This document shows positions 1 to 22,321 of a stretch of DNA of 24,000 nt, piece after piece. The notes beneath the pieces are model-generated. The model was not told the DNA's origin. It did not search any database and saw nothing but the letters and a program-made list of their open reading frames with translations. Both the position numbers and the translations under genes were made by a program. This stretch comes from Methanomassiliicoccales archaeon. Lineage in GTDB: Archaea; Thermoplasmatota; Thermoplasmata; SG8-5. The DNA is taken from the NCBI GenBank assembly GCA_030636255.1, contig DAOVXH010000004.1, positions 1 to 24,000 of the forward strand, given 5' to 3'. Position 1 is the stretch's first letter. The number at the start of each line of letters is the position of its first letter.

Positions 1-1055
1 ACAGCACCCAATCCTCGAATCTTTTCCGTTGAAAGAATACCAATCACTGCTTCTGGATATGCATCGCCAGTAGGATGTATCTGGATTGTATCTACATCTT
101 TCAGGTTTGCACCTGCATGATAGGCCATTACAAGGCCATCGCCTGTTGCACCATAGTGATTTGTAGTTGGATAATTGGAGAGATGAAGCCTTCCACTTCC
201 ACCGGTAGCCAGTATGGTAACTTTTGACCGAATAACATAGTATTCATCAGTTTCCATATTGAATGCAATTCCTCCAGAAACAATGCCCTGGTCATCCTTG
301 AGCAATTCAATGACTGGACAGAACTCCAGTACCGGAATCTCAAGGTTCCTGGCCCTGTCGCGGATATTACGCATTAGCTCCATGCCAGTATAGTCCTTGG
401 CACTGTGCATTCGGTTCCTGCTGGTTCCTCCACCAGAAAGTTCCTGGAACTCGCCATTCTCCATACGGTCATACATAACACCCAGACCAAGATGCCATTT
501 TATTATCCCGGGAGCATCCATTGCCAGTGCTTTTGCCAGCTCTGGTTTATTGGTGAAATGACCGCCACCATAAATGTCAAGATAGTGCATTTCAGGATTG
601 TCAACTGGCCTGTCTGCGGCTTGAATTCCGCCCTGGGCCATCATTGAATTGGCATCACCATGTCTGAGCTTGGTTGTTATGAGAATTTTATCTAATGGAA
701 CCCCGCCTTCCTCGTGGGCGAACAATGCAGCCACGGTTCCAGCTCCTCCCCCACCGATAATGAGTATGTCTACATCATAGTCTATCTTTGTGAGGTCAAC
801 ATCCTTTGTTTCCAGTATGGATTTTGATTCCAGAAGATCTACAATGCCATTGTAAATTTTTTCACCCTTGTTTGGACCCAGCGCGACTTCCCGTATTGTG
901 CTGTCCATGAAATCAGGGTGGTACTTTTTGAGTACTTCTGCCCTTCCCTCCATTGACAAGGCAGGTACGTCTGTCTTGAGATTTTGTACCCGTTTCTCCT
1001 CAACAAGTTTTATTGATTCCATCATGTAATCCGGATAACCGTCTATGGTCTTCAT
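1..1055 (-). CDS. FAD-dependent oxidoreductase of the succinate dehydrogenase/fumarate reductase flavoprotein family (5' part only; gene runs off the left edge)
   Basis: The minus-strand frame is open from ATG 1055..1053 to position 1. It is absent from the ORF track because there is no stop in the window. My translation reads MKTIDGYPDYMMESIKL...DVDILIIGGGGAGTVAALFA...TGGSGRLH...IQIHPTGD...LSTEKIRGLGA. The GxGxxG FAD fold begins only about 95 residues in; the later motifs are FrdA/SdhA-type. GAGGAGGTGG precedes the ATG, and the start overlaps the upstream Fe-S gene's stop as ATGA. Confidence 0.75.
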   Translation of the reverse strand, partial: MKTIDGYPDYMMESIKLVEEKRVQNLKTDVPALSMEGRAEVLKKYHPDFMDSTIREVALGPNKGEKIYNGIVDLLESKSILETKDVDLTKIDYDVDILIIGGGGAGTVAALFAHEEGGVPLDKILITTKLRHGDANSMMAQGGIQAADRPVDNPEMHYLDIYGGGHFTNKPELAKALAMDAPGIIKWHLGLGVMYDRMENGEFQELSGGGTSRNRMHSAKDYTGMELMRNIRDRARNLEIPVLEFCPVIELLKDDQGIVSGGIAFNMETDEYYVIRSKVTILATGGSGRLHLSNYPTTNHYGATGDGLVMAYHAGANLKDVDTIQIHPTGDAYPEAVIGILSTEKIRGLGA

Positions 1056-1804
1056 TGGTCCACCTCCTCATCCAGGTCACCCTTGGCCTCTATTTTTCTC
1101 TTCTTATATAGGTCAAGAATAGTATCCTTGTCCATGGACATCATTTTATCAACCTCGTCCAGGTATTTTCCTTTGTCCATTTCTTCCATACGGGCATTGA
1201 GTTCCTTTGATTCCGGGTCTATGTACTTTCCTCTCAATCTACGTGCAAGCTGGCCAACATGATAATGTTTGATATCGGCTGGACATCTCATTGCACACAA
1301 TCCGCACTGAATACAGTCAAATGAAATTTCGGCAGCCTTTGTAATATTGCCACGAAGTGCATTCTGGATATACATCATTACATTGATATCCTGGGGACAT
1401 GATTTTGTGCAGGTATTACATGATACACATCTGGCTATCTCGGGATAGATTGAAAGAATTATATTATCTTCAGGAGCCAGGTCATTGATGTCATACTTGG
1501 CTTTGTATGCTGGGACAAAAGGTATCTGGACCAGGTACATACCATCCTCAACAAGGGCTTGACAGGCAAGGGCAAAGTGCAATTTTTGCTCTTTCTCCTT
1601 TCTGTAGACCGTAGCACATGCCCCACAGAAGCCTGCTCGGCAACCGCAGCTTCTGACATACTGATAGCCAGCATATTCTATTGCCTTCATTATGGTGAAG
1701 CCCACAGGCACTTCATATCTTTTGCCCATGATGAAAATCTCCACATTACCAGCTTCCTGGATAGGTTCGTCTTGCTTTGCACACTCGACATCTGTCTCGG
1801 TCAT
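1052..1804 (-). CDS. Iron-sulfur subunit, SdhB/FrdB-like (2Fe-2S ferredoxin-like N-domain plus two 4Fe-4S motifs)
   Basis: Track ORF 1052..1831. Cysteine motifs are CGCRAGFCGAC, CVSCNTCTKSCP and CIQCGLCAMRCP. I moved the start to ATG 1804 (MTETDVE...) because GGAGGT lies 6 nt upstream. A start at 1831 would overlap the upstream gene. Confidence 0.75.
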   Translation of the reverse strand: MTETDVECAKQDEPIQEAGNVEIFIMGKRYEVPVGFTIMKAIEYAGYQYVRSCGCRAGFCGACATVYRKEKEQKLHFALACQALVEDGMYLVQIPFVPAYKAKYDINDLAPEDNIILSIYPEIARCVSCNTCTKSCPQDINVMMYIQNALRGNITKAAEISFDCIQCGLCAMRCPADIKHYHVGQLARRLRGKYIDPESKELNARMEEMDKGKYLDEVDKMMSMDKDTILDLYKKRKIEAKGDLDEEVDQ

Positions 1805-1823
1805 TTCAAAACCTCCGATGTAA

Positions 1824-2702
1824 TCAATCAATCACCCCTTTCTTCTTAAGAATTGGATTGGGGTCAACTGCATTTAAATCTAATCCCAGTGACTCGGCAT
1901 CCAGGCCAAGTGCAAGGGCAATAAGTTGAGTGAAATATAATGTTGGGAGCTGTCTGTATCCATCATACATGGATTCTGCTTCCTTTCCTCTGACATCCAG
2001 ATTATACTTGCACAGAGGACATGAAAGCATTATTACATCTGCATCATGTTCCAGGGCAAAGCTTGAGATGTTCTTGGCCCTCCTGGATGTTAGCTCTTTC
2101 TGGTCAATAGTCCTGTAGGAACCGCAGCACTCAATATTGAAGGGATTGTTCACAACCTCGGCTCCCAGTGCCTTAATCAGATCGGAAAAAATCTTTGGGT
2201 CTTCAGCATCATCAATGGCTACTTCCCTTGGCCTCAGCAACATGCATCCATAGTAGGGCATTACTTTAAGACCTTTCAGAGGTTTTTTCACCTTCTTCTT
2301 CAAAGTAGCAAAACCAACTTCATCTCTTAAGAATTCCAGAAAATGCATTATATTAACTGTATTATTATAATCATTCTCTTTATCCATAAAATCATTAAGT
2401 GTGTCCAGGTCGCTTTGACTTTCCTTGACCCTGATATCTGTCTGCTTCAATGTATTGTAACACATATCACATAGCACCACAACTTTATCTTGCTTCTGAT
2501 CCTCAATATGAATAAGATTTCTGAGAGGGGCCAGATGATGCATCAAATCATCACTTGTAAGGGATGCAACAACCCCACAACAATTCCATTCTTCCATCTC
2601 CACAAGCCTGTAGCCAAGTTTCTCGGCTATTGCCATGGCTGATGTTTCCAGATTTTTCGCGGAAGTCTTCAGAGTGCATCCAGGGTAATATAGCATGTCC
2701 AT
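1824..2702 (-). CDS. HdrB-like protein with two CCG domains (HdrB / SdhE / TfrB C-terminal family)
   Basis: Two CCG-type cysteine signatures: YYPGC...WNCCGV...LCDMC and YYGCM...IECCGS...LSCPLC. The track start at 2717 is TTG. ATG 2702 (or 2696) is the more likely start. Confidence 0.75.
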   Translation of the reverse strand: MDMLYYPGCTLKTSAKNLETSAMAIAEKLGYRLVEMEEWNCCGVVASLTSDDLMHHLAPLRNLIHIEDQKQDKVVVLCDMCYNTLKQTDIRVKESQSDLDTLNDFMDKENDYNNTVNIMHFLEFLRDEVGFATLKKKVKKPLKGLKVMPYYGCMLLRPREVAIDDAEDPKIFSDLIKALGAEVVNNPFNIECCGSYRTIDQKELTSRRAKNISSFALEHDADVIMLSCPLCKYNLDVRGKEAESMYDGYRQLPTLYFTQLIALALGLDAESLGLDLNAVDPNPILKKKGVID

Positions 2703-2709
2703 AGTATTC

Positions 2710-3144
2710 TCAACCAATATTTTTTCTAAATAGGCTCACAAATGCCATCTGGGGAATGTTTTTCTTTTCTTCCTCGGAAAGACATGTGATTTCTGTTTCA
2801 TCGATACTTAATCTTAATACTATCTGGCGAAGTGCCTCCATGAGAACTGTTATGTTAATATCCCTGGGACATCTCTCAGCGCAAATAAAGCAAGTGGAGC
2901 AAAGCCATATCGTCTTTGAATTCAATACCTCTTTCTTATCAAGGATAATATGCCGTATAACCTCGTCCGGCGTTAGGTCCATCTCCTCTACAAAAGGGCA
3001 GCCTGAAGCACATGTGCCGCATTGATAGCATCCAAAAACATTCTCGTCACAAAGTTCAAGAACCTCATCAACCAGCTTACCTGCCAGTTTAATTTCCTTT
3101 GATGTTTCAGGATGTTCACAATCATTCTCAGACTCTGTTGACAT
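2710..3144 (-). CDS. HdrC-like 2x[4Fe-4S] ferredoxin-domain protein
   Basis: Motifs CYQCGTCASGCP and CSTCFICAERCP. ATG 3144 (MSTESEND...) is preceded by a G7 run on the coding strand. The track start at 3165 is TTG. Confidence 0.7.
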   Translation of the reverse strand: MSTESENDCEHPETSKEIKLAGKLVDEVLELCDENVFGCYQCGTCASGCPFVEEMDLTPDEVIRHIILDKKEVLNSKTIWLCSTCFICAERCPRDINITVLMEALRQIVLRLSIDETEITCLSEEEKKNIPQMAFVSLFRKNIG

Positions 3145-3326
3145 TATACCCCCCCATAAAAACAAAAAGTTTTATGAGCGCTATGAATCATGGGAATAAT
3201 AATAAGATATATAAATGTTAAGTCAATTAATTTTATAAGCCCGTATATTCAAAGAATAATTATGTGAATAAAATCAAAAATAAAAAATATGTAAAAATCC
3301 TAATAATCAAGTATAAATTCGTAATA

Positions 3327-9999: not shown

Positions 10000-10032
10000 T
10001 ATATCATTATCTTCATGTAATCAATTGTGTGG

Positions 10033-13000
10033 ATGAAGAGAAATTATGTAGCCTGGATATGTGCGTTTTTGATGCTCAGCAGCGTGTTTGTTGGATTGCA
10101 AGTAAATGAAAATGCTGAAGCCAGGATAGCTGAGGGAGATGGAGTATTGTATACACCTCATGCGCCAATTAGAATAGATTCGGATGCGGATTTTCCTGGG
10201 ATTGCGTCTGGAGGTGACGGAAGTGCTGGTTCTCCCTGGATAATAGAAAATCATGAGATAAATGGCACGGGTCATGGATATTGCATTTACATTGGGAATA
10301 CTACTGAGCATTTCATTGTGAGAAATAGTTTTGTACACAATGCAGATGGATTACTAAGTTGGCCGTATTATACAGATTCAGGATTGACATTATATAATGT
10401 TCAAAATGGAGTAGTCTCAAACAACACCGCAGCTTCAAACCTTCGTCAAGGATTTTTGCTCCACACCTCCTCCAATAACACTATTGTTGACAACAATGTA
10501 TCTTCATTAAATTTGGATGGTATTTTACTCTACTCCTCCTCAAAAAACACCATTAGAAATAATACTGCAACTTTTAACAATGACTTTGGAATTTGCCTTA
10601 GCCTCTCCAACAATAATACAATATCAAGCAATAATGTGTCATTCAACAATAACAATGGCATGTACATAGTCTCTTCCACAAACAACACATTTTCAGGTAA
10701 TTATGTTGCATCGAACAATGACAATGGTATGCACCTAATTTCTTCGAGTAATAATTCTCTTGCTAATAATTCTATTATGAACAATGATGATTATGGAATC
10801 TTAATTGAGACCTCAATCAATAACACTCTAACTCATAATACCATGTACATGAATCTTTTGAGGTGCTTAACCCTCCGGTTTTCAAATAGCAACTATATAA
10901 CGAATAATAATTTATTTTCAAACAACGGTTGTTCTATTATGCTTGATTCGTCTTATAATAATTCAATTTATCATAATAACATAATCAATAGTGCTTTCGC
11001 CTTTGATAACACAGGATTTAACTCCTGGGACAATGGCTATCCGGACGGCGGCAATTACTGGAGTACATTCAACACCAGCCTTTATGTTGGAAACGAGAGC
11101 TTCTTCGCCTCTGGCGGCGAGGAGGGTTTCTATCTGGATCAAAACGAGAACACACCAGGATTCCAGGGTATCCAGACATTACATGAGATCAGATATGTTT
11201 GGGACAATGACTGGTCCTTTGTCTATGTATTGGTCGAGGGTGTAGATTTTGATATAAATATTACCACTGGCTGGGTTCAGGTTTACTGGGGAGGATTTGT
11301 TCTAGGCGATCAGCTCTATAGTGAATACACTTGTCTTGTAAACCCACCAGACCTATTCTGGGGACCAAATCAAGATATTCCTGACTCTGACTTTATTTAT
11401 GATATGCCATACCCAATTTTGGGAGGAACCAATGAGGATTCATATCCACTTGCTTACCCAATCATCAACGGAAGGTTCCAGCGTGGCCCAATAAGGATAG
11501 ATTCCAATGCTGATTTTGACCAAGCTCACGGTGTAATCAATTGGGATTCTGGAGATGGAAGTATTGACAATCCCTGGATAATCGAGAAATGGGATATTAA
11601 TGGAACTGGCCATGAATTTTGTATTTATGTTGGGAATACTACGGACTATTTTGAGGTGAGGGGCAATAGTTTTCACAATGCAAGTGGATTCGGGGTCATA
11701 ATACGCAATTGCTATTATGGAATAATTCTTGACAATGAAATAATTTACAATAATAACAATGGAATTTACTTACCGCTTTCATTTTATATCACAATTCAAA
11801 ATTGTAAGATATTATACAATAGCAATTCAGGCATTTATTTGAATGAGGCTTCTCGTCTAATCACAATTGAAAATAACACTATAAGTTACAATGCTGGCAA
11901 TGGTATTGAAACTTTTTATTCCTGGGGCAATAAAATATATAACAATGTGATAAGTAATAATGACGGTTCAGGTATCGGAACTTTTGCAGGTAGTAAAAAT
12001 ATAATAAAACAAAACACTATCTCAAATAATCAATATGCTATCGCACTCTTACTTTTTGATGGCAATGGAAGTATAATCAAACAAAACACTATCTCAAATA
12101 ATCAATATGGAATTTATACGGTCTTTTCTTCAAGTAATATTAGTTATTATCATAATAATTTCATTAACAACACCATCCAAGCATATGACGATGGCACCAA
12201 CAATACCTGGGACAATGGCTACCCAGATGGAGGGAACTATTGGTCTGACTATTCCGGTGTTGATTTGAATAGTACACCCTCCCAGGATATACCACCACCA
12301 GACGGAATCGGAGACACACCATATACAGACATTGACGGAGTGGCTGGAACCATAGACAATTATCCATTGATGGAGCCCTGGATGCCGCCCCCTATACTCA
12401 CCTATGACATAGACCTCACAACAGGCTGGAACCTAATCTCCCTGCCCCTTGCCCAGTCTGATGAAGATATTTATTCTGTATTATCCAGTATTGACGGTGA
12501 CTGGGACAGAATTAAGCTCTATGATTCACAGAGTGTGAATCACTGGTTATCGAGTTCCATATACAGTCCAGACCTGAGTGAAATTGACCAGTTGAACCAC
12601 ACAGTAGGCATCTGGATACACATGGTGAATGCAACAACTCTCACTGTGGAAGGAATAGAACCAGTGTTCACAAATATAACATTATATGCTGGTTGGAATC
12701 TGGTAGGCTATCCATCATTGTTTCCTGAAACTGTGGCAAATGCCCTCTGGGGAACTGGAGCAGACCGGGTGGAGGTATGCGACCTTGAAGAACCAGGCTT
12801 GATAAAAGAGGTGGGGCCAACTTATATCATGCAGCCAGGAGAAGGGTACTGGGTTCATGTTCCGGCTGATACTGTCTGGACAACTGAAAAGACTGTAGGA
12901 AATCCTCAAATTGTTGTACGAGGGGACAACCCTGACACTGGCGGTTATGAATACATTAGATTTAACAACACAGAACCAGTAAATGGTGATACAATTTCAA

Positions 13001-14442
13001 TAACAGCTACAATCCAGAATCTTGGTGGAGGTTCTGCAGCGGTTGATGTGAAATATTATGATGGTGAGGAAATATCGAGCCAGCTCATTGGAACCGATTA
13101 CTTGTTATTACCTGCACAGGGTGAAATAGATGCTGTAATAAACTGGAAAGCAAGTCCTGGTGGAGCTCACTCAATTATTGTTACAGCAGAGGTAAATGCC
13201 ACATATGCACTTGTAAATGATATTTATGACCCGTATCTTCCTGACAATCGAAACAGCACAGCCATCTTGGTGATACCAAAAATATTACTGGTTGACGATG
13301 ACAACCACACAAATGACTATTCCCTAGACGACACAACCTCGTATATGAGAGACGCCTTGAGAAATGCAAATTTTGAATATGACTTTGTAATTGTTGGGCC
13401 TGGTGACGGACCTGGCTATGATTACGGTGATTATCCCCTTGAGGATTATGACATCGTTATATGGATGACTGGCCATACCGAGACAAACACCCTCACACGA
13501 CCACTGAACCCTGCAGAACCAATGGCCACCAGAACCGATGATGTCGCAAACCTTATGAGATTTCTTGATGGGGAGTCCACAGGAGGAAATGGCGGTAGTT
13601 TGTGGCTGATTAGTGAGGGATACTGGGACGATGCTATCGGAGACCCGGTACACGAACCATTCTTTATGAATTACTTGCACCTGAGCGATATTGCCACAAC
13701 ACCCATGCCATCCCTAAAGAACACACTCCCCACAGAACTCTGGGGCAGGGAGAATCATACAATTACCAATAACTATGCAGATAATCCAATAAACACCGAG
13801 ATTAAGGTTGCTGGAACCGATGCGGCCTGGTCATGGGCCTCCGGTGATTTTCCGGACACCAGTGCTATTGCTCTCAATAATAGCGATAATTCCCGGGTTT
13901 ATGGTGTGACCTATGATTCAGATGATTATCCAGCTGACCCAATAGCAGATTCAAGAATATTTGTCCAGACCTGGGATTTTTCAAGGATACAGGACACTGC
14001 AACGCAGGCACAGTACGCCTATAGAGCTTTATTTTGGCTTGGAAACTATTCTATGATGTTCGGAAGAGATGTTGCATTATCTCAGCAGACTATTGAGCCA
14101 ACCACTGTTACAATTAATGAAACAATAAACATAACTGCCATTGTTCGAAACAACGGGTTCAATGACTATAATTCTTCCCAAGGCGATAATCTGTGGTATC
14201 TTCTGAGGATTACAGATGAATATAACAATGATATTACCGTGCCACATCTAGAGCGGATAGATTATTTGGGAATTGGGTCTAACAATGAGTTTATTATTAA
14301 TCATCAATTTACTTTTCATGAGATTGGAAACTTCACTGTCTGGATAGAAGTGGACCCATACAATTACATTATTGAAACCAATGAACTCAACAACCAGGCA
14401 TCTGAATATTACAATACATTTGAAATTGAGGTTTTGCCCTAG
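10033..14442 (+). CDS. Large secreted surface protein: two right-handed beta-helix (PbH1/NosD-like) modules plus C-terminal CARDB-like domains; probable glycoprotein/adhesin
   Basis: Track ORF 10027..14442 (GTG). ATG 10033 gives MKRNYVAWICAFLMLSSVFVGLQVNENAEA, a signal-peptide-like N-terminus. Long runs of ~22-24-aa N/S/I-rich coils are present (NNT.., SNN.., G.Y/I). A duplicated head motif PIRIDS.ADF...PWIIE..(I)NGTGH.(Y/F)CIY(I/V)GNTT and tail motif WDNGYPDGGNYWS occur twice. Two CARDB-like segments carry ..I.A.(I/V).N.G.. strands. Several dozen N-x-S/T sequons are visible by eye. I found no C-terminal TM or PGF-type anchor. Confidence 0.7.
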   Translation: MKRNYVAWICAFLMLSSVFVGLQVNENAEARIAEGDGVLYTPHAPIRIDSDADFPGIASGGDGSAGSPWIIENHEINGTGHGYCIYIGNTTEHFIVRNSFVHNADGLLSWPYYTDSGLTLYNVQNGVVSNNTAASNLRQGFLLHTSSNNTIVDNNVSSLNLDGILLYSSSKNTIRNNTATFNNDFGICLSLSNNNTISSNNVSFNNNNGMYIVSSTNNTFSGNYVASNNDNGMHLISSSNNSLANNSIMNNDDYGILIETSINNTLTHNTMYMNLLRCLTLRFSNSNYITNNNLFSNNGCSIMLDSSYNNSIYHNNIINSAFAFDNTGFNSWDNGYPDGGNYWSTFNTSLYVGNESFFASGGEEGFYLDQNENTPGFQGIQTLHEIRYVWDNDWSFVYVLVEGVDFDINITTGWVQVYWGGFVLGDQLYSEYTCLVNPPDLFWGPNQDIPDSDFIYDMPYPILGGTNEDSYPLAYPIINGRFQRGPIRIDSNADFDQAHGVINWDSGDGSIDNPWIIEKWDINGTGHEFCIYVGNTTDYFEVRGNSFHNASGFGVIIRNCYYGIILDNEIIYNNNNGIYLPLSFYITIQNCKILYNSNSGIYLNEASRLITIENNTISYNAGNGIETFYSWGNKIYNNVISNNDGSGIGTFAGSKNIIKQNTISNNQYAIALLLFDGNGSIIKQNTISNNQYGIYTVFSSSNISYYHNNFINNTIQAYDDGTNNTWDNGYPDGGNYWSDYSGVDLNSTPSQDIPPPDGIGDTPYTDIDGVAGTIDNYPLMEPWMPPPILTYDIDLTTGWNLISLPLAQSDEDIYSVLSSIDGDWDRIKLYDSQSVNHWLSSSIYSPDLSEIDQLNHTVGIWIHMVNATTLTVEGIEPVFTNITLYAGWNLVGYPSLFPETVANALWGTGADRVEVCDLEEPGLIKEVGPTYIMQPGEGYWVHVPADTVWTTEKTVGNPQIVVRGDNPDTGGYEYIRFNNTEPVNGDTISITATIQNLGGGSAAVDVKYYDGEEISSQLIGTDYLLLPAQGEIDAVINWKASPGGAHSIIVTAEVNATYALVNDIYDPYLPDNRNSTAILVIPKILLVDDDNHTNDYSLDDTTSYMRDALRNANFEYDFVIVGPGDGPGYDYGDYPLEDYDIVIWMTGHTETNTLTRPLNPAEPMATRTDDVANLMRFLDGESTGGNGGSLWLISEGYWDDAIGDPVHEPFFMNYLHLSDIATTPMPSLKNTLPTELWGRENHTITNNYADNPINTEIKVAGTDAAWSWASGDFPDTSAIALNNSDNSRVYGVTYDSDDYPADPIADSRIFVQTWDFSRIQDTATQAQYAYRALFWLGNYSMMFGRDVALSQQTIEPTTVTINETINITAIVRNNGFNDYNSSQGDNLWYLLRITDEYNNDITVPHLERIDYLGIGSNNEFIINHQFTFHEIGNFTVWIEVDPYNYIIETNELNNQASEYYNTFEIEVLP
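12001..12109 (+). repeat. Near-identical 37-nt direct repeat, 72 nt apart (one beta-helix coil duplicated)
   Basis: ataataaaacaaaacactatctcaaataatcaatatg (12001..12037) versus ataatcaaacaaaacactatctcaaataatcaatatg (12073..12109) differ at 1 position. Both encode IIKQNTISNNQY. Confidence 0.85.
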
Positions 14443-15295: not shown

Positions 15296-15417
15296 GTGGC
15301 TGACAGCGTTCTGCGGTTCCCGTGGACTCTCGTACCACAGTACCGCGCAGAACGCAGGTGGACTTTACTTCTGGGTTCGGAAAGAGACCAGGTGTGGCCC
15401 CACCGCTGTGACCGTCA
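15296..15417 (-). rRNA. 5S ribosomal RNA (stand-alone)
   Basis: The reverse complement reads GACGGUCACAGCGGUGGGGCCACACCUGGUCUCUUUCCGAACCCAGAAGUAAAGUCCACCUGCGUUCUGCGCGGUACUGUGGUACGAGAGUCCACGGGAACCGCAGAACGCUGUCAGCCAC. Conserved 5S blocks are CCACACC, CCGAACCC.GAAGU.AAG, GUACUG and GGGAAC. The 5' and 3' ends pair as helix I. A TTTATA box lies ~26 nt upstream and a T5 run follows immediately downstream. Ends are good to about 3 nt. Confidence 0.9.
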
Positions 15418-15525
15418 AACCAAACCATGGATAGCCATGCTGTATAAATAGTTTTCAGTTTAATCGACTCAATCACGATAGATTTATATCAACATCTACA
15501 ATACCAGGCCAAAAGGTGCAATATC

Positions 15526-16247: not shown

Positions 16248-17015
16248 ATGATTGATGACGTAGAAGTAACAAGAAAGATTTTCGAACGCTACTCCAGAGA
16301 ATTTCTGGACAATACCCAGGTGGATGTAATTATTGCCGGGGCTGGCCCAGCCGGTCTCACCGCTGCAAGAATACTGGCCAAAGCCGGGAAAAAAATCTTG
16401 ATTGTTGAAAGAAAGCTTGCCCCAGGAGGAGGAATGTGGGGCGGTGGAATGAATTACCCGGTCATTGTCATACAGCCAGAATCAAAACATCTCCTTGATG
16501 GAATCAATATACCAGTTCAGGATGCTGGTGATAATTATTACACTGCAGATTCAGTGGAATGTGTTGCAAAACTTTTGGCCAGCGCAATCGATGCTGGTGC
16601 AAAGGTCTGGAATGCTGTTACAGTCACAGATGTCATGATACGCCAGGAAAAAGTTGCTGGCGTTGTCATAAATTGGACCGGCGTGGACCTCACTGGAATG
16701 CATGTTGACCCATTGACCATCGGTGCAAAATATGTTCTTGATGGTACAGGCCATGATGCCAGCGTCTGCGAGGTTACCCACAGGAAGGCTGGAAAATTGA
16801 ATACACCTAGTGGGGGTGTTGAAGGAGAACGCTCCATGTGGGCCGAAGTGGGTGAGCAGACTGTGGTCGAAAATACCAAGGAAATATACCCTGGCCTCTA
16901 TGTTATTGGCATGGCTGCTAATGCAGTAATGGGAGCCCCAAGAATGGGGCCCATATTCGGCGGCATGCTCCTTTCCGGAGAAAAGGCAGCCAGGGAAATC
17001 CTGGAGAAATTATAG
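16248..17015 (+). CDS. thi4: Thiamine thiazole synthase, Thi4 family (archaeal type)
   Basis: DVIIAGAGPAGLTAARILAKAG is the FAD/NAD fold. Also present: ERKLAPGGGMWGGGM, DGTGHDASV and GMAANAV.GAPRMGPIFGGMLLSG. The start is set at ATG 16248, with GGTG 6 nt upstream; the track start GTG 16239 is possible. The stop overlaps the convergent radical-SAM gene's stop by 6 nt (TTATAG). Confidence 0.85.
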   Translation: MIDDVEVTRKIFERYSREFLDNTQVDVIIAGAGPAGLTAARILAKAGKKILIVERKLAPGGGMWGGGMNYPVIVIQPESKHLLDGINIPVQDAGDNYYTADSVECVAKLLASAIDAGAKVWNAVTVTDVMIRQEKVAGVVINWTGVDLTGMHVDPLTIGAKYVLDGTGHDASVCEVTHRKAGKLNTPSGGVEGERSMWAEVGEQTVVENTKEIYPGLYVIGMAANAVMGAPRMGPIFGGMLLSGEKAAREILEKL

Positions 17016-18071
17016 ACCCAGTTCCTTGGCAACTTCCCTTGCAGTATCTATGAAGCAATAATCACCATTTACACGCTGGAGCCAGCATGCTCCACGGCAC
17101 AGGTCTAAAACGTCACAATCCTTGCAGTCCTGGGGCACATCATCGAAGAGTGTTTCCCTGAATCGGGTGAAGCCCTTCCACCACATGTCTGCTATTGGAA
17201 CTTCCTTGACATTTCCTTCTGAGTATAATTCCGGGAACTCAAGTGCCGGACATCCCATAACCTCTCCGTCTGCCATTATTGTGAATGTGTTCCATCCGCA
17301 ACCGCAGAAGAATGGTGGCCTAATAACGCCATCCAGTGGTCCAAGATAACCGTGACCTTCGCAAACTTCGATATTGTGGCCTTTCTGCTTCATCTCATAG
17401 ACATACTTGAAGACCTTCTTCATTATCACAGGGTCATTCTTCATGCCAACTGCTCGGCCTTCTGGAACTATTGTCTGAATCCTGTGGCGCATACTTCCAT
17501 GTGCTACGCAATCATCGTAAATCAGAGGTATCTCGTCCACATTTTCTTCCATGTAAACTGTTGCTGTTGCAACCACTGGAAGTTCCATCTCTGTGAATAT
17601 ATCCAGGGCTTCCATGGCCTTTGCATAGGCTCCCTTTGTTCCCCTTATCTTGTCGTGATTGTCCCTGTAACCGTCAAGGCTCACCATAACGGAGAATGGC
17701 TCTGCTTCTTCAATCATCTTTCTGTTTTCTTTGATTGCAAATCCATTGGTAACAAAACCAGTCATTATGCCGCGTTCTTTGCATCGCTGCATGACCTCTG
17801 GAAAGTCAGGCCTTAGTATGGCCTCTCCACCGGTCAAGGACAGTACCTTGGTTCCCATCTCTGCCAGTTGGTCAATAACATTCAATATCTGCTCGGTTGT
17901 GAGCTCGTCGGGCTTTGCCTCGTCAGCAGCTGTTCCACAATGCGGGCATTTGAAATTACACTTGTGTGTGGCAATCCACTGGACATAAAATGGTGCCAGT
18001 GTTTTGTTCTCAAACTGCGTTCTGTATTCTTCCTCTGCTCTTATCTGTAAAGGTCTGTCATCATCTTTCAT
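17010..18071 (-). CDS. Radical SAM/SPASM-domain enzyme 2 (no N-terminal peptide-recognition domain); putative peptide maturase
   Basis: The radical SAM motif is C-NFK-C-PH-C, about 38 residues from ATG 18071. The full SPASM pattern is CGWNTFTIMADGEVMGC ... CKDCDVLDLCRGAC ... C. ATG 18071..18069 lies 1 nt after the stop of the upstream radical SAM gene, with GAGAGGGA upstream. The track's longer start at 18146 would overlap that gene by 74 nt. Confidence 0.8.
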   Translation of the reverse strand: MKDDDRPLQIRAEEEYRTQFENKTLAPFYVQWIATHKCNFKCPHCGTAADEAKPDELTTEQILNVIDQLAEMGTKVLSLTGGEAILRPDFPEVMQRCKERGIMTGFVTNGFAIKENRKMIEEAEPFSVMVSLDGYRDNHDKIRGTKGAYAKAMEALDIFTEMELPVVATATVYMEENVDEIPLIYDDCVAHGSMRHRIQTIVPEGRAVGMKNDPVIMKKVFKYVYEMKQKGHNIEVCEGHGYLGPLDGVIRPPFFCGCGWNTFTIMADGEVMGCPALEFPELYSEGNVKEVPIADMWWKGFTRFRETLFDDVPQDCKDCDVLDLCRGACWLQRVNGDYCFIDTAREVAKELGL

Positions 18072-18072
18072 A

Positions 18073-19473
18073 TTAATCCCTCTCTTCAATTTTTTCATTA
18101 GCTTCAAAATCATTGACCATCTTCTGCCAGCGCTGGTCAACGTCATACTTTCTTCCCATCTTTTTCATGGTTGAGGTCCAGATGGATTCTTCAAACAATC
18201 TCTTGTGCATATCACAGAATATATCAGGTGCTCTTATGGTATCATGCTTCGAGTATGCATGCATTCTGCATCCTCCAGCACAATAATAGCGCCACTCACA
18301 GTCAGAACATTCCTCTATGGTCTCCACGCTTGTTTCACGCCATTCATGGAACACCGAAGAATTATCCCAGATGTTTTGAAGGCTATCTTCTCTGATATTG
18401 CCTGCAAGAAACTCTGGAAGCTGTGATGCCTGACATGGATAGATGCTTCCATCGGAGTCCAGGCTGATACTGTTTATTGCAGCACCACAATTATAGCCAT
18501 ATTTAGTAATGACTGGCCCTGCGGCTGACTTCTTATTGTCCAGAGGAACATCTGAGTTTAATTCCCTGCTGGTCTTGTCAATATCCCACCATGCATTCAG
18601 CAGCTCCAATACAGTGGGCTGGCTGCTGTTCTCGCCCTTCCCGATGGCCATCAATGGAGGGCTTTTCACACTGGCAAGGCCGTACTTGTTTGCCACCCTC
18701 ACCAGATGATCCAGTTCATTGCAGTTTTTATTGGTAACCACCGCATTGATATATGGATTGATGCCAGCATTAACAAAGTTCTCTATGGCCTTAATGGCAG
18801 CATCATAGGAACCTTTTCCTCGCATCTCATCGTGTATCTCTCTTGGACCGTCAAGGCTCACCTGTACAGAGCAGAAATTGTTCTTGATTCGCTCTGCCAT
18901 CTCCTCATCTACCAGAATACCATTTGTGGCCATTATTAGTGATATGTCATACTTTTGAGCATGCGCCACAATATCCCAGAAATCCTCCCGCATCAGAGGT
19001 TCACCGCCACTAATGGCGATTGTCTGGTTATCTCCACCCATTTCATGGAACTGATCAATGAAATTGAAAATCTCCTCGGTGGTAAGCTCATTTTCCATTT
19101 CCTGGCCTGCGGTAATGTAGCAGTACTTGCAACGTAAATTACATCTGTGGGTTATATGCATCCAGGCCATCTGAATGGTTATGTCTGGTGGGGTAGCCTC
19201 AAAGGTCACTCCAGAGCCTTCAAGCATTCCCATTCCTTTCAGGGTTTCAATAAGAGCTCCCAGGTCCTTCAATAGTTCCTCTTTTGGCAAATCATACTTC
19301 TGGGCCAAAGAAGAAACAATGTCATCCAGGGAATTCTGGCCGTCCATCATCTCAATGGAAAAAATTGCCTTTTCGAAGGCCACAAACCAATCTGGCTTAT
19401 CCGGGTTCAGGCACAGAAATAAATCCTCGTAATTCTTTATGACTATATCGTCAATAACTTTTGGTCCATTCAA
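18073..19473 (-). CDS. Radical SAM/SPASM-domain enzyme 1 with N-terminal PqqD-like (RRE) extension; putative peptide maturase
   Basis: C111-NLR-C-KY-C is the radical SAM motif. The SPASM pattern is CGAAINSISLDSDGSIYPC ... CSDCEWRYYCAGGC ... C. Residues 1..~95 (..FSIEMMDGQNSLDDIVSSLAQKYDLPKEELLKDLGALIETLKGMGMLEG) resemble PqqD/RiPP-recognition elements. The start is TTG 19473, with GGAGAGGG ending 5 nt upstream. There is no in-frame ATG or GTG after the upstream TAG. Confidence 0.8.
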   Translation of the reverse strand: MNGPKVIDDIVIKNYEDLFLCLNPDKPDWFVAFEKAIFSIEMMDGQNSLDDIVSSLAQKYDLPKEELLKDLGALIETLKGMGMLEGSGVTFEATPPDITIQMAWMHITHRCNLRCKYCYITAGQEMENELTTEEIFNFIDQFHEMGGDNQTIAISGGEPLMREDFWDIVAHAQKYDISLIMATNGILVDEEMAERIKNNFCSVQVSLDGPREIHDEMRGKGSYDAAIKAIENFVNAGINPYINAVVTNKNCNELDHLVRVANKYGLASVKSPPLMAIGKGENSSQPTVLELLNAWWDIDKTSRELNSDVPLDNKKSAAGPVITKYGYNCGAAINSISLDSDGSIYPCQASQLPEFLAGNIREDSLQNIWDNSSVFHEWRETSVETIEECSDCEWRYYCAGGCRMHAYSKHDTIRAPDIFCDMHKRLFEESIWTSTMKKMGRKYDVDQRWQKMVNDFEANEKIEERD

Positions 19474-19503: not shown

Positions 19504-19550
19504 AAAAATAAATATTAAAAGGGGCTTGAGTGTAAAACACCCACCGCCCC
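19504..19550 (-). terminator. Possible attenuator/partial terminator between precursor ORF and maturase genes
   Basis: Minus-strand RNA is GGGGC-GGUGG-GUGU-UUU-ACAC-UCAA-GCCCC, followed by UUUUAAUAUUUAUUUUU. The hairpin is imperfect, but oligo-U runs alone can terminate archaeal transcription. Confidence 0.3.
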
Positions 19551-19579
19551 AATTTTATGTTTTTTATTCTCTAACGAGT

Positions 19580-19699
19580 TTATGGCTTGACACCAATGAA
19601 AATTCCGTATTTCATTCCAATGTCTGTGCATGGTGGTTTGCCGCCGTTGCAGCCGTTGTAACCACCGGCATTCTCGCTCTGATTTACTATATCGCTCAC
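19580..19699 (-). CDS. Small Cys/Gly-rich peptide, candidate RiPP precursor (39 aa; not in ORF track)
   Basis: The start is GTG 19699..19697, with GGAGGTG (19711..19705) 5 nt upstream. The stop is TAA at 19582..19580. Translation is MSDIVNQSENAGGYNGCNGGKPPCTDIGMKYGIFIGVKP. It lies directly upstream of, and co-directional with, the RRE-bearing radical SAM gene. An in-frame ATG at 19753 would give 57 aa. Confidence 0.6.
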   Translation of the reverse strand: MSDIVNQSENAGGYNGCNGGKPPCTDIGMKYGIFIGVKP

Positions 19700-19763
19700 T
19701 TTTTCACCTCCAACATATTTCGTGGATTGTAGGTTCAATCCTGTCCCTTGCATTGCCCTATCG

Positions 19764-19771
19764 TATATAAA
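19764..19771 (-). promoter_or_regulatory. TATA box (TTTATATA) for the peptide ORF
   Basis: Minus-strand TTTATATA matches the consensus archaeal TATA element. It predicts a transcript start near 19740. That leaves a ~40-nt leader containing the GGAGGTG site. Further TATA-like AT-rich boxes lie at ~19790..19835. Confidence 0.45.
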
Positions 19772-19842
19772 GCTGCCGAAAAATTACTATATAAATTTAA
19801 CTATGATTTGAGCGTGAAATAGAGTATATTATATAAAATGTA

Positions 19843-19889: not shown

Positions 19890-20783
19890 TCATGCGCCCC
19901 ATTTCGCCAGGTTGCCGTCCCTCTCTGCCTTGTGCATGCCTTTCCTGAACAAGAATATGCCTATTGACAGGAATATAACAGTAAATATCAATAACATGAA
20001 AATATCATTCATTATTATGGGCATGTCCGTGGCCTGATTCATTGCAGGGTTCAGAAGACGCCTGAAGGCATCCAGTGCATATGTATGTGGGAATATTCTG
20101 GACAGGTAGTACATGGGAGGAAATACCTCAAGATATACCTCAGGAGGGAAGAACGAGCCAGAGACAAGGCCAGCAAATGTTGCAAAGAACCAATTAACAG
20201 GTTCAGCGCCACCCTTCACATCCAATAATAGGAAAGTACTGGCTGAGATAAGTCCCAGACCACTTATGGATAAAATTGCAAGTAATAGGACAGTAATCAG
20301 AATAAAAATATTAGATGGCACGGCAATTATGGCACCAAGTAGGGAAACCCCAACAAGAATGTAAAACAGGATATTGAGCGTGGAGGAAATCAGTGCCCTT
20401 ATAAGTACCACAATCAGATAATTGTAGAACTTAACTGGTGATGATAGAATAATCTCCAGCCAGTTATTGAAATATGTCTCGGAAATTACACTACGCACCG
20501 CTATGAGACAAACATTTGCATATGCAAAGAAGGCCACACCAATAAGAACGAATGTAAAGAAATCACCGCCGTACTCTGCAAAATAAGTTGCATCTGGCTG
20601 TATCACATAATTTAGAAAGAAAAATGACAGTATGGCCACAATGGATGAAATAGTTCCAACAATGGCACTTATCTTGAACCTCATCCATAGATAATAATGG
20701 CGGGTGTACATGGCCCTAACAAAGTCTAGCTTACCCCTGAATGACATTGAGGTCTTAACTGGAACAATTGCCTTTTCGCTCAT
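19890..20783 (-). CDS. ABC-2 type transporter permease
   Basis: The 297-aa protein has about six hydrophobic helices and an N-terminal cytoplasmic segment (..FVRAMYTRHYYLWMRFK..) typical of ABC-2 permeases. Its start overlaps the ATPase gene's stop as ATGA. Confidence 0.75.
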   Translation of the reverse strand: MSEKAIVPVKTSMSFRGKLDFVRAMYTRHYYLWMRFKISAIVGTISSIVAILSFFFLNYVIQPDATYFAEYGGDFFTFVLIGVAFFAYANVCLIAVRSVISETYFNNWLEIILSSPVKFYNYLIVVLIRALISSTLNILFYILVGVSLLGAIIAVPSNIFILITVLLLAILSISGLGLISASTFLLLDVKGGAEPVNWFFATFAGLVSGSFFPPEVYLEVFPPMYYLSRIFPHTYALDAFRRLLNPAMNQATDMPIIMNDIFMLLIFTVIFLSIGIFLFRKGMHKAERDGNLAKWGA

Positions 20784-21808
20784 GCCTCACCTCTTTCTTT
20801 CATTACCTGAACAAATATATCATTCAATGTTGGAGTTTGTATATCCACTCTATGAACCTTGCAAAATTCTTTTGAAATGTCAATAATATGTGGAGCTAAG
20901 CGATGCATTTCTTTGCCATAAATCGCAAGTCTGCTGGCCCCAGGAATGATGTCTTCGGGGTCTTTTTGAAACTCAACATGAAGTATCAAATCCAGTCCAA
21001 TTAGCTCTTTGGCCAGGTCTTTGATATTGCCAGATATATCAAGCAATAACAAATCATCTGATAACTGTTTTCTAAGTTCCTCGGCTGTCCCAACCTTCAC
21101 TATCTGGCCCTTGTCTAGAATTACCACTCTATCGCATACCTTCTCTGCTTCCCACAGATTATGTGTTGCCAGGACCACAGTAGTACCTCTCTTGGCCAAA
21201 TTTTCCCTGATAAAATTACGAATAAATTCACTTGAATAGGGGTCAATATTGGTTGTTGGTTCATCAAGCAGATAAATCGGCCTATCAATCATTAAGCATC
21301 TGGCAAGGTTGAGCTTTTGTCTCATTCCTGCACTGAGATTTTCAGTGAACTCTTTCTTTTTGTCACCGAGACCTACCGTGTCCAGTGCCTTGTCGGCTGC
21401 CTTAATTGCCTCATCATGTCTCAGGCCCATGAAAACGCCCCAGAACAGGAGCAGCTTGTCAAGAGGATACTTGTAATCAAAAATGATCCAGCCACCGGCC
21501 CTCAGGAAATTGCAGGAGCAGCGCACTTCATGCCTATCTTCCACAATATCAAGACCATTAACAAGAACTTTACCACTATCTGGGTACAGGAACCCGGCCA
21601 TAACCTTCAACATGGTAGTCTTGCCTGCTCCATTTGGCCCCAAAATACCAATAACCTCGCCTTTTTTCACCTGAAGATTAACACCATCCAGGGCATCAAT
21701 ATATTTTCTCTTGTCCTTGCTCATGCTCTCCTTAAAATTATCCAGCCAGTTATTTTCTGGATCTTTTTTCGGATACCGCTTGTGAAGCCCTCTTATGTCT
21801 ATCATCAT
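20780..21808 (-). CDS. ABC transporter ATP-binding protein
   Basis: Walker A is GPNGAGKTT, the signature is LSAGMRQK, Walker B is IYLLDEPT and the H-loop is ATHNL. The start is set at ATG 21808 (MMIDIRGLHKRY), a typical ABC N-terminus. The track's GTG 21895 start would leave only 39 nt to the divergent gene. The region between Walker A and the signature is divergent; I could not recognise a Q-loop Gln. Confidence 0.8.
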   Translation of the reverse strand: MMIDIRGLHKRYPKKDPENNWLDNFKESMSKDKRKYIDALDGVNLQVKKGEVIGILGPNGAGKTTMLKVMAGFLYPDSGKVLVNGLDIVEDRHEVRCSCNFLRAGGWIIFDYKYPLDKLLLFWGVFMGLRHDEAIKAADKALDTVGLGDKKKEFTENLSAGMRQKLNLARCLMIDRPIYLLDEPTTNIDPYSSEFIRNFIRENLAKRGTTVVLATHNLWEAEKVCDRVVILDKGQIVKVGTAEELRKQLSDDLLLLDISGNIKDLAKELIGLDLILHVEFQKDPEDIIPGASRLAIYGKEMHRLAPHIIDISKEFCKVHRVDIQTPTLNDIFVQVMKERGEA

Positions 21809-21934
21809 TCTTTCGGCCAAATTCCCTTCTCCGTTGAGTGCCGAAATCCGGCCACCTTTAAATTGTTTGTCATTAGTGATAATACTCCACATCACCCCAA
21901 GATTTATAGTGAAGTTGAACTATGGGCTGCCAGC

Positions 21935-22321
21935 ATGACTGATGAAATTGAATATCTAGCCAAACGCATAAGGGATCGACCGGACAATGTTCTTTCGGTT
22001 TCAGATTTAGCTTCCGAGCTACAGCTTCCAGAATTGCAGGTGGCCAGGGATATCAAGGATATTGTCAAGCGCGACGGATTCTTTGACATAGGAGACCACA
22101 GCATCATGTTCACTGGAAATACCGAGCTGGCAGCCTTCGAGATATTCAAGACCGCAGCAGCAAATATCACATTTGACGAGTTCATCAAGCACCAGGAACA
22201 GCCACACCTTCTCATGAGACTCTCCAGGGACAGAACAGTGGCATGCAAGAACAATCCAGAGAAATTACTTCAGGATGCAATAAAAGAGAAGGAAATCAAT
22301 AGGGGGAATACAGTTAGCTAG
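21935..22321 (+). CDS. Small hypothetical protein with probable winged-helix HTH (candidate regulator, divergent from the ABC/radical-SAM cluster)
   Basis: This is the 128-aa C-terminal part of track ORF 21317..22321. The upstream 206 codons are antisense to the ABC ATPase. NVLSVSDLASELQLPELQVARDIKDIVKRDGFF resembles DeoR/HTH_11-type helix-turn-helix segments. ATTTATAG at 21902..21909 would fit a near-leaderless transcript. Confidence 0.45.
   Translation: MTDEIEYLAKRIRDRPDNVLSVSDLASELQLPELQVARDIKDIVKRDGFFDIGDHSIMFTGNTELAAFEIFKTAAANITFDEFIKHQEQPHLLMRLSRDRTVACKNNPEKLLQDAIKEKEINRGNTVS

Follow-up and report, generated by a model that had tools for sequence, protein, structure and literature searches.

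The window analysed here, a 24,000-nucleotide stretch of contig DAOVXH010000004.1 from a Methanomassiliicoccales archaeon, carries on its minus strand a 39-codon open reading frame (ORF) which probably encodes the precursor of a peptide synthesised ribosomally and then modified post-translationally (RiPP) and which would form, together with the genes of two radical S-adenosylmethionine (rSAM) enzymes (rSAM1 and rSAM2), a cassette specific to a lineage of uncultured sediment Thermoplasmata. The peptide is likely the substrate of these adjacent enzymes, and it founds a small precursor family that is described in no curated database. The peptide gene, the parts of its product and the two enzyme genes are as follows.

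19580-19699, minus strand: precursor peptide gene (39 codons and a stop; GTG start at 19699-19697, TAA at 19582-19580)
Residues ~1-13/16 of the 39-residue peptide: proposed leader (MSDIVNQSEN...)
Residues ~16-37 of the 39-residue peptide: proposed core (GCNGGKPPCTDIGMKYGIFIGV)
Last 0-8 residues of the peptide: variable tail (KP in the window sequence)
18073-19473, minus strand: rSAM1, a protein of 466 residues with PqqD (RiPP recognition element, RRE), radical SAM and SPASM domains; TTG start
17010-18071, minus strand: rSAM2, a radical SAM-SPASM protein of 353 residues without RRE; starts 2 nt after the rSAM1 stop

The small gene, its start codon and its flanking elements

The GTG-started product is MSDIVNQSENAGGYNGCNGGKPPCTDIGMKYGIFIGVKP; it contains eight Gly, two Cys (in a CX6C arrangement), two Tyr, one Phe, three Lys and three Pro, and its C-terminus is hydrophobic (YGIFIGV). 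The coordinates, Shine-Dalgarno (SD) sequence, spacing and composition given in the initial annotation, which was made from the sequence alone, match the window sequence in every detail. About 19 distinct homologous peptides are known, all from metagenome assemblies (the count includes the second copies in loci L017 and L010 and the peptides of L019 and L020). Seven relatives were found with a word-indexed search of 5.8 billion proteins, two further ones with an exhaustive hidden Markov model search of 1.84 billion cluster representatives, and five additional ones via a broader profile; P0017 and P0018, also returned by the exhaustive profile search, were dropped as low-complexity repeat proteins and not relatives. 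The JGI metagenomes, scanned twice with the peptide profiles, gave no relative, and their sole match (L022) was a chance one inside a 400-residue protein. Against Pfam and NCBIfam, no family match to the peptides was obtained even at E <= 10 (for the NCBIfam precursor models, 14 members were tried), and the mtrG matches to the hydrophobic tail (E 0.05-0.12) were regarded as noise.

The sense frame is open, without a stop or a frameshift, in all 12 DNA copies. Pairwise differences at codon positions 1, 2 and 3 numbered 400, 282 and 971, respectively (59 % at the third position), and the ratio of nonsynonymous to synonymous differences (pN/pS) was 0.25 overall and, by block, 0.215 (residues 2-10), 0.535 (residues 11-23) and 0.076 (residues 24-37). 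That the conservation comes instead from the antisense ORF at 19526-19732 on the plus strand, or from an RNA element, so that the locus does not code for the peptide, has next to no probability. The in-phase antisense frame is indeed open in 12 of the 12 copies, but this follows simply from the absence of TTA, CTA and TCA codons from the peptide gene. Overall and in the C block, pN/pS amounts to 1.18 and 2.14 for the antisense frame and to 0.25 and 0.076 for the sense frame, which effectively refutes this explanation and identifies the minus-strand ORF as the gene. Furthermore, the minus strand carries the start codon with its SD sequence, the hairpin that resembles a terminator and every neighbouring gene of the cassette, and no Rfam match was found at this site. 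The stops, frameshifts or lack of amino-acid conservation that the initial annotation had named as grounds for discarding the ORF were looked for in the homologous loci and not seen; with its homologues, open frame, low pN/pS and conserved position, the ORF is almost certainly a real small gene.

The elements that bear on the start codon and on expression are listed below.

19705-19711, minus strand: Shine-Dalgarno-like GGAGGTG, 5 nt (five A's) upstream of the GTG start
19724-19741, between the TATA box and the SD sequence: perfect palindrome GGATTG-N6-CAATCC; single occurrence in the window
19751-19753, minus strand: upstream ATG, in frame, not the conserved start; in the 5' untranslated region (UTR) or promoter-proximal
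19764-19771, minus strand: proximal TATA-like box TTTATATA, conserved in 6 of 8 loci; transcription start predicted only
~19788-19796, minus strand: distal TATA-like box TTTATATAG, ~24 nt further upstream
19517-19550, minus strand: G+C stem-loop (GGGGC...GCCCC) and U-run, 30 nt past the peptide stop and before rSAM1

We assign the start, with high confidence, to GTG 19699, which would give a product of 39 residues. GGAGG precedes the aligned G/ATG by 5-8 nt in all eight loci compared, and the same was true for both copies of L017 and L010; the aligned start is ATG in at least ten copies (L015, L009, both of L010, both of L017, P0095, P0096, P0097 and P0101), and P0016, P0096, P0097 and P0101 begin exactly at MSD. 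The initial annotation had also considered a product of 57 residues from ATG 19753, with a leader of 31 residues; comparison across loci rules this form out, and we leave it a very slim chance. The SD sequence GGAGGTG precedes the GTG and not the ATG. The upstream ATG is in frame in six variants (the window, L016, L011, L013, L014 and P0099), in three of which two compensating 1-nt indels preserve the frame; in L005, however, it is out of frame and ends at a TGA inside the SD sequence (GGAGGTGA), and L015, L009/L010 (both copies), L017 (both copies), P0096, P0097 and P0101 have no counterpart of it, lack the extension and start at ATG-MSD. Gene callers did pick ATG 19753 (P0001-P0004), and the 57-residue form is held as a called protein without a name in a public collection (P0001; sources, NCBI and ENA). 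With the distal TATA-like box, transcription could begin upstream of this ATG, so that the choice of box would decide whether the ATG is transcribed. The segment between ATG and GTG is 98 % identical as DNA, far above the synonymous-site identity, which points to a constraint on nucleotides and not on coding, and the same conserved nucleotides are read as KYVGGEK, NMLEVNK or KKLEVKT across loci, because compensating 1-nt indels shift the frame. Given this conservation at the DNA level with frame-shifted residues, ATG 19753 would sit in a constrained non-coding leader upstream of the 39-residue product. Nor is the longer form needed for a typical leader, because 13-16 residues are already near the 18 residues of the CteA leader (PMC6231123).

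As for the non-coding elements themselves, the pair of boxes, TTTATATAG and TTTATATAC, ~24 nt apart, is kept in 6 of 8 loci including L017. The 25 nt around the palindrome are 98.4 % identical in five loci, where third codon positions are only 62 % identical; the palindrome is absent from L009, L015 and L017 and, as an RNA hairpin, folds no better than shuffles (z -0.4). It is a candidate for a strongly constrained non-coding element, an operator-like site or a small UTR hairpin, and it could be a repressor operator, perhaps for the divergent 128-residue ORF at 21935-22321. The stem-loop past the peptide stop folds better than its shuffles (z -3.7; 0 of 200 shuffles fold as well), and 6-7 of 8 loci share its outer stem and T-run; no compensatory changes or covariation were seen across the eight loci. 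Lying between the genes of precursor and maturase, it resembles a terminator or an attenuator. This element and the TTG start of rSAM1 (TTG in the window, all close loci and L017; ATG in L019 and L020) would together favour the synthesis of more peptide than enzyme.

The paired-enzyme cassette and the conserved core

Upstream of the peptide gene lie two genes of a putative ATP-binding cassette (ABC) system.

19890-20783, minus strand: membrane protein with ~6 transmembrane (TM) segments (from hydropathy), putative ABC-2-type permease; ATGA overlap with the ATPase gene
20780-21895, minus strand: DrrA-type ABC ATPase (ABC_tran, DrrA1-3_C); start uncertain, 370 residues according to gene callers

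The ATPase scored 215 bits against TIGR01188 (drrA subfamily) and did not reach the cut-off of 312. The order permease-peptide-rSAM1(-rSAM2) is kept in every locus long enough to show it, and the peptide is directly upstream of rSAM1 in all loci reaching that far, including those with an enzyme identity of 38-43 %. Identities of the rSAM1 homologues are 99, 86 and 73 %, then 46, 43, 39 and 38 %, and then the generic background of 30 %; near-identical copies bear the name "Thermoplasmata archaeon" in NCBI. Two tandem peptides, which end in ...HGCCTSSCTEVGPKYGVFIGV and ...CTEVGPKYGVFIGGAPPQIIDL, are encoded in the 43 % locus (L019), and the peptide of the 38 % locus (L020/L021, a Thermoplasmata metagenome-assembled genome (MAG)) ends in ...GGCGNCVEVGSIYAAFLPIPE; in both L019 and L020, the rSAM1 and rSAM2 orthologues come after the peptide(s). 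Tandem duplicated precursors, which are common in RiPP clusters, were found in L017 (184-632), L010 (205-646) and L019 (7387-7941). The tandem copies of L017 and L010 each have their own SD sequence and ATG, and the paralogues differ mainly between the leader motif and the second Cys. The kept synteny, the tandem precursors and the retention of the cassette at 38-43 % identity support the proposal in the initial annotation that the adjacent enzyme acts on the product of this ORF, which is its best candidate substrate. The S19e-L31e-aIF6 block lies no more than ~5 kb from the L019 cassette and is likewise close in this genome (as seen in the near-identical locus L002), and this shared context suggests vertical inheritance of the cassette.

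Several further loci were noted in these comparisons. P0095 and P0097 are probably a third tandem pair, on one 702-bp contig. The MAG of L020 holds a second, divergent cassette (L020 4823-7552; = L021 1-2702), with a PqqD-rSAM-SPASM gene on the opposite strand, its own 43-residue peptide MIEVITPKGNEVGQQNGNGPQFHGEECVVAPGGVICIPINIIY (two Cys and a C-terminal Tyr), and a 254-residue rSAM2 paralogue without the N-terminal radical-SAM cluster region. The only match of the rSAM1 contig scan, L001 (Ca. Methanoxibalbensis ujae), was rejected; it is a stand-alone AhbD/NirJ-like rSAM protein of 398 residues with neither PqqD nor peptide.

Besides Met1, only Cys17, Cys24, Gly28 and Tyr31 are invariant across 14 aligned members of the peptide family; exceptions exist at Thr25, Asp26 and Lys30 (two members have Ala or Ser in place of Asp26). 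K-Y-G is found in 18 of 19 members and I-Y-A in L020, the most distant. The peptides of the distant loci share G-C-Xn-C-x-[DE]-[IV]-G-x-x-Y, and the N-terminal halves of the L019 and L020 peptides are unrelated to MSDIVNQSEN. In these loci, identity is 20-28 % in the RRE domain of rSAM1 and 44-50 % in its catalytic domains, and rSAM2 is better conserved than rSAM1 (69 vs 43 % in L019, 49 vs 38 % in L020). The leader is thus replaced where the RRE diverges and the core is kept, which fits a leader co-evolving with the RRE and a core seen by conserved active sites; this co-divergence is correlative evidence and not a binding test. Accordingly, the assignment of the N-terminus as a leader and of the Cys/Tyr-bearing C-terminal part as a core is supported: the former changes completely in the loci with the most diverged RRE, and the latter combines a pN/pS of 0.076 (residues 24-37) with the invariant Cys17, Cys24 and Tyr31. 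The Gly-Gly leader boundary proposed with it is not. GG occurs at positions 12-13 in ~11 of 19 members (SG in L005) and is absent from L009/L010, the first L017 copy, P0097, P0101 and the L019 peptides, and no C39 peptidase was found in the scanned ORFs of the window.

rSAM1 exceeded the Pfam cut-offs for PqqD (PF05402; 30.9 bits vs a cut-off of 23.4, residues 38-83), Radical_SAM (104 bits) and SPASM (44.5 bits). In its AlphaFold model (pLDDT 89, pTM 0.86), the RRE comprises strands 11-15, 18-23 and 28-33 and helices 34-42, 49-60 and 64-80 (pLDDT 86-95); the presence of an RRE in the adjacent enzyme, claimed from the sequence at first, is confirmed by the Pfam match and by this predicted fold. 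The closest solved relative of rSAM1 by sequence is CteB (E 7e-32, residues 50-435), and CteB is also the best Foldseek match of the model (E 3e-24, TM-score 0.66-0.74, ~458 columns), followed by SuiB, SkfB, anSME, TigE and PqqE. The invariant Cys in an alignment of 29 rSAM1 sequences are the CX3CX2C triad (C111, C115 and C118) and seven C-terminal ones, and these seven SPASM Cys are all in register with those of CteB. For auxiliary cluster I (Aux I), anSME has two ligands at one site where rSAM1 and CteB have one. In CteB, a substrate cysteine binds at an open site of Aux I, and the clusters of anSME, SuiB and PqqE are fully ligated (PMC6231123). The best solved relatives of rSAM2 are SkfB (1.8e-22) and PqqE (8e-20), and its orthologues have eight invariant C-terminal Cys, including the linker Cys237, which are enough for two fully ligated clusters. 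CteB and SkfB, the nearest solved relatives of rSAM1 and rSAM2, both form thioethers.

With the curated NCBIfam models, rSAM1 stayed below all cut-offs: StsB (NF045574; 192 bits, cut-off 625), MftC (TIGR03962; 186, cut-off 265), WgkB (160, cut-off 650), the SCIFF maturase (TIGR03974; 129, cut-off 425) and PapB (NF047865; 125, cut-off 340). rSAM2 scored 94 bits against the SkfB model (TIGR04403; cut-off 300), its second-best match being the nif11-class peptide maturase model (TIGR04103; 156 bits vs a cut-off of 725). The PqqE model (TIGR02109; cut-off 381) gave 114 bits for rSAM1 and 108 bits for rSAM2. A literature search on the accessions TIGR04103 and TIGR04133 found nothing.

From these comparisons, a sequence of steps may be proposed. 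The conserved, strand-like MSDIVNxS would dock on the PqqD-type RRE at the rSAM1 N-terminus. Aux I of rSAM1 probably has an open site for a substrate Cys, because there are only seven SPASM cysteines; the thiol of Cys17 and/or Cys24 would then be joined to a carbon of a downstream residue in CT[DE][IV]G-x-K-Y-G, giving a thioether of the sacti or ranthi type. rSAM2, of the fully ligated SuiB/PqqE/anSME type, would introduce a second thioether or a cross-link at Tyr31. In this clade, the DrrAB-like ABC system encoded upstream would export the product or protect against it. We consider the chances even that at least one Cys thioether is formed, and export of the product, suggested by the adjacency of the ABC genes in the close family, an equally balanced matter. 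An unprecedented doubly cross-linked product (e.g., a thioether combined with a link of the C-C or C-S type from Tyr), made from the core by one CteB-like and one fully ligated SPASM enzyme, with a conserved physiological role is rather unlikely on present indications.

Relation to known systems and rival explanations

The locus has the traits of a generic RRE-dependent rSAM/SPASM RiPP cluster, namely an adjacent, co-oriented precursor, a CX3CX2C motif with a seven-Cys SPASM domain, and a PqqD-like RRE, and the system is predicted to work like such a pathway, being closest to SCIFF/CteB. With SCIFF/thermocellin (CteA/CteB), a thioether RiPP system of ranthipeptide type from Clostridia, it shares a precursor of ~40-45 residues with a short leader and a highly conserved, Cys-containing core, as well as a maturase that consists of an N-terminal RRE, a radical SAM domain and a full SPASM domain with seven Cys and no eighth Aux I ligand. 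However, there are two Cys here (three in the L019 peptides) and six in SCIFF; the peptides of this family match no NCBIfam precursor model (14 members, E <= 10); rSAM1 scored 129 bits against the 425-bit maturase cut-off, at ~22 % identity; the partner enzyme, a second rSAM-SPASM protein, is obligatory; the host is an archaeon; and the invariant Tyr and Gly of this family have no SCIFF counterpart. The sactipeptides (streptosactin, StsB/GggB; sporulation killing factor, SkfA/SkfB; subtilosin, SboA/AlbA) resemble the system in having Cys donors upstream of a conserved acceptor region and ABC genes adjoining the precursor, with StsB at the top of the NCBIfam matches of rSAM1 and SkfB at the top of the PDB matches of rSAM2, and a subtilosin-like cluster was reported in Thermococcales archaea (bioRxiv 10.64898/2026.07.27.741052). 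In contrast to sactipeptides, the scores here are far under the cut-offs (192 vs 625 and 94 vs 300), the peptides are not similar, this locus encodes no leader or cyclisation protease, and rSAM2 has a full SPASM domain where SkfB has a Twitch domain.

PQQ and mycofactocin offer a small precursor with a near-frozen core and an essential Tyr, PqqD-type recognition and an rSAM-SPASM enzyme; MftC and PqqE are among the better matches, and the chromosomal context looks vertically inherited. Unlike in PQQ, the motif here is [DE]-x4-Y with an acidic residue that is not invariant, in place of E-x3-Y, and pqqB/C/F genes are absent; unlike in mycofactocin, the peptides end in IGV(xx) and not GVY, and mftB/D/E/F neighbours are absent. 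Both systems further differ in the two invariant Cys and the adjacent ABC genes found here, and in the enzyme scores (186 vs 265 and 114 vs 381 bits). A short polar N-terminus ending in GG in the window sequence and adjacent ABC genes recall class II bacteriocins and other double-glycine leader peptides exported by C39-peptidase ABC transporters; however, GG is not conserved, and the transporter is split into a DrrA-type ATPase and a 6-TM permease without a C39 domain. Membership in SCIFF, the characterised sactisynthase families, mycofactocin, PQQ or the double-glycine bacteriocins was therefore rejected, each failing on the traits of the family concerned.

Several observations weigh against the reading of the ORF as the precursor of an exported, cross-linked peptide. 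For the permease, neither Pfam nor NCBIfam gave a family match even at E <= 10, and no peptidase, including C39, was found among the scanned ORFs of the window, so that a leader peptidase is not encoded nearby. The ABC genes are missing from L019 and L020, and export is therefore not a conserved part of the system. In L015, a 504-bp contig, the peptide has no recognisable permease upstream and no rSAM1 downstream, which would make it an orphan copy or a case of another gene arrangement. Second among the NCBIfam matches of rSAM1 is MftC, an enzyme that does not form thioethers, and the chemistry is not transferable by homology, because both enzymes are far below the curated cut-offs. Finally, a core conserved this strongly is unusual for an antimicrobial RiPP.

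A rival explanation is that the peptide is a sacrificial scaffold, as are PqqA and MftA, and that the pathway makes no exported cross-linked peptide; a small intracellular molecule of cofactor type, redox-active or metal-binding, would be built around Tyr31 with Cys, Asp or Glu. We regard this as unlikely. The nearly frozen core (pN/pS 0.076), kept in loci whose enzymes are 38-43 % identical, would suit it, as would the absence of the ABC genes from L019 and L020 and the position of the L019 cassette near the S19e-L31e-aIF6 block, as here, with the vertical inheritance that this suggests; in the close family, however, the ABC system always adjoins the peptide. Although MftC is second for rSAM1 (NCBIfam, 186 bits) and PqqE second for rSAM2 (PDB), both enzymes are under the MftC and PqqE cut-offs, and rSAM1 is structurally nearest to CteB, a thioether enzyme. 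The eight conserved Cys of rSAM2 are as in the fully ligated PqqE type (PMC6231123). Against a cofactor also count the lack of PqqB/C- or MftD/E/F-like tailoring genes and of peptidase genes in the window, the lack of a C-terminal Val-Tyr and of the E-x3-Y motif in the peptide, and the replacement of Asp26 by Ala or Ser in two members.

It is improbable that an rSAM enzyme instead excises tyramine at K-Y-G, as in spliceotides, leaving an alpha-keto-beta-amino acid residue. X-Y-G is the spliceotide splice-site motif, and binary splicease systems that lack a Y protein are known (PMC11414181). The invariant Tyr31 and the K-Y-G of 18 of the 19 members agree with such a site; the most distant member, however, has I-Y-A and not X-Y-G, the peptides have no NHLP- or Nif11-type leader, and splicing would leave the two invariant cysteines unexplained. 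The nif11-class model TIGR04103, the second NCBIfam match of rSAM2, may represent the splicease (PlpX/RhaX) clade, although the literature search on the accession found nothing; moreover, the score (156 vs 725 bits) is no better than generic SPASM similarity. Scarcely probable, too, is an unmodified small membrane-active or transporter-associated peptide tied to the ABC system, next to which the rSAM genes would lie by coincidence. In the close family the peptide gene does lie immediately downstream of the ABC genes, but in L019 and L020 the peptide accompanies two rSAM genes and not ABC genes; the hydrophobic C-terminus (YGIFIGV) that might insert in a membrane is, at ~7 residues, too short for a transmembrane helix; and the invariant Cys, Cys and Tyr beside an enzyme with a fused RRE are as expected of a substrate. 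We thus retain the modified precursor peptide as the best explanation, with the reservation that, for a vertically inherited cassette with a near-frozen core, the product could be a cofactor, a metal ligand or a signal and not a bacteriocin.

In a survey of genomes from archaea, 3,599 RiPP clusters were predicted, some of them rSAM-dependent; only lanthipeptides of Haloarchaea have been validated experimentally so far, and archaeal rSAM RiPPs are widely predicted, with none characterised (PMC12144867). If real, the doubly cross-linked product would be the first radical-SAM RiPP characterised from an archaeon. What is new is the very small precursor family and the paired-rSAM cassette in Thermoplasmata; in kind, such a precursor is to be expected beside a PqqD-rSAM-SPASM gene. 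The system is a well-defined target (a substrate of 39 residues with a fixed start, two enzymes, four invariant residues, and natural leader and core variants), and its small size suits it to direct heterologous co-expression. With a near-frozen core and a conserved location, it also prompts one to ask whether some rSAM peptides of archaea serve as housekeeping molecules and not as weapons.

Neighbouring genes and other features

The genes flanking the cassette are housekeeping ones, encoding Thi4, an RDD protein, 5S rRNA, MarC, two aminoacyl-tRNA synthetases and aIF6. The 5S rRNA gene (15298-15419, minus strand; Rfam, 87.8 bits) stands alone: it is flanked by the MarC and RDD-family genes, and neither a 16S nor a 23S rRNA gene adjoins it. 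On the plus strand, 10027-14442 encodes a protein of 1471 residues with NosD/right-handed beta-helix repeats and a C-terminal CARDB domain, which is probably surface- or adhesin-like. Three overlapping, co-oriented genes occupy 1052-3165 on the minus strand and encode a ferredoxin-like protein (2Fe-2S and 4Fe-4S), a CCG-domain protein (HdrB-like) and a 4Fe-4S dicluster protein (HdrC-like).

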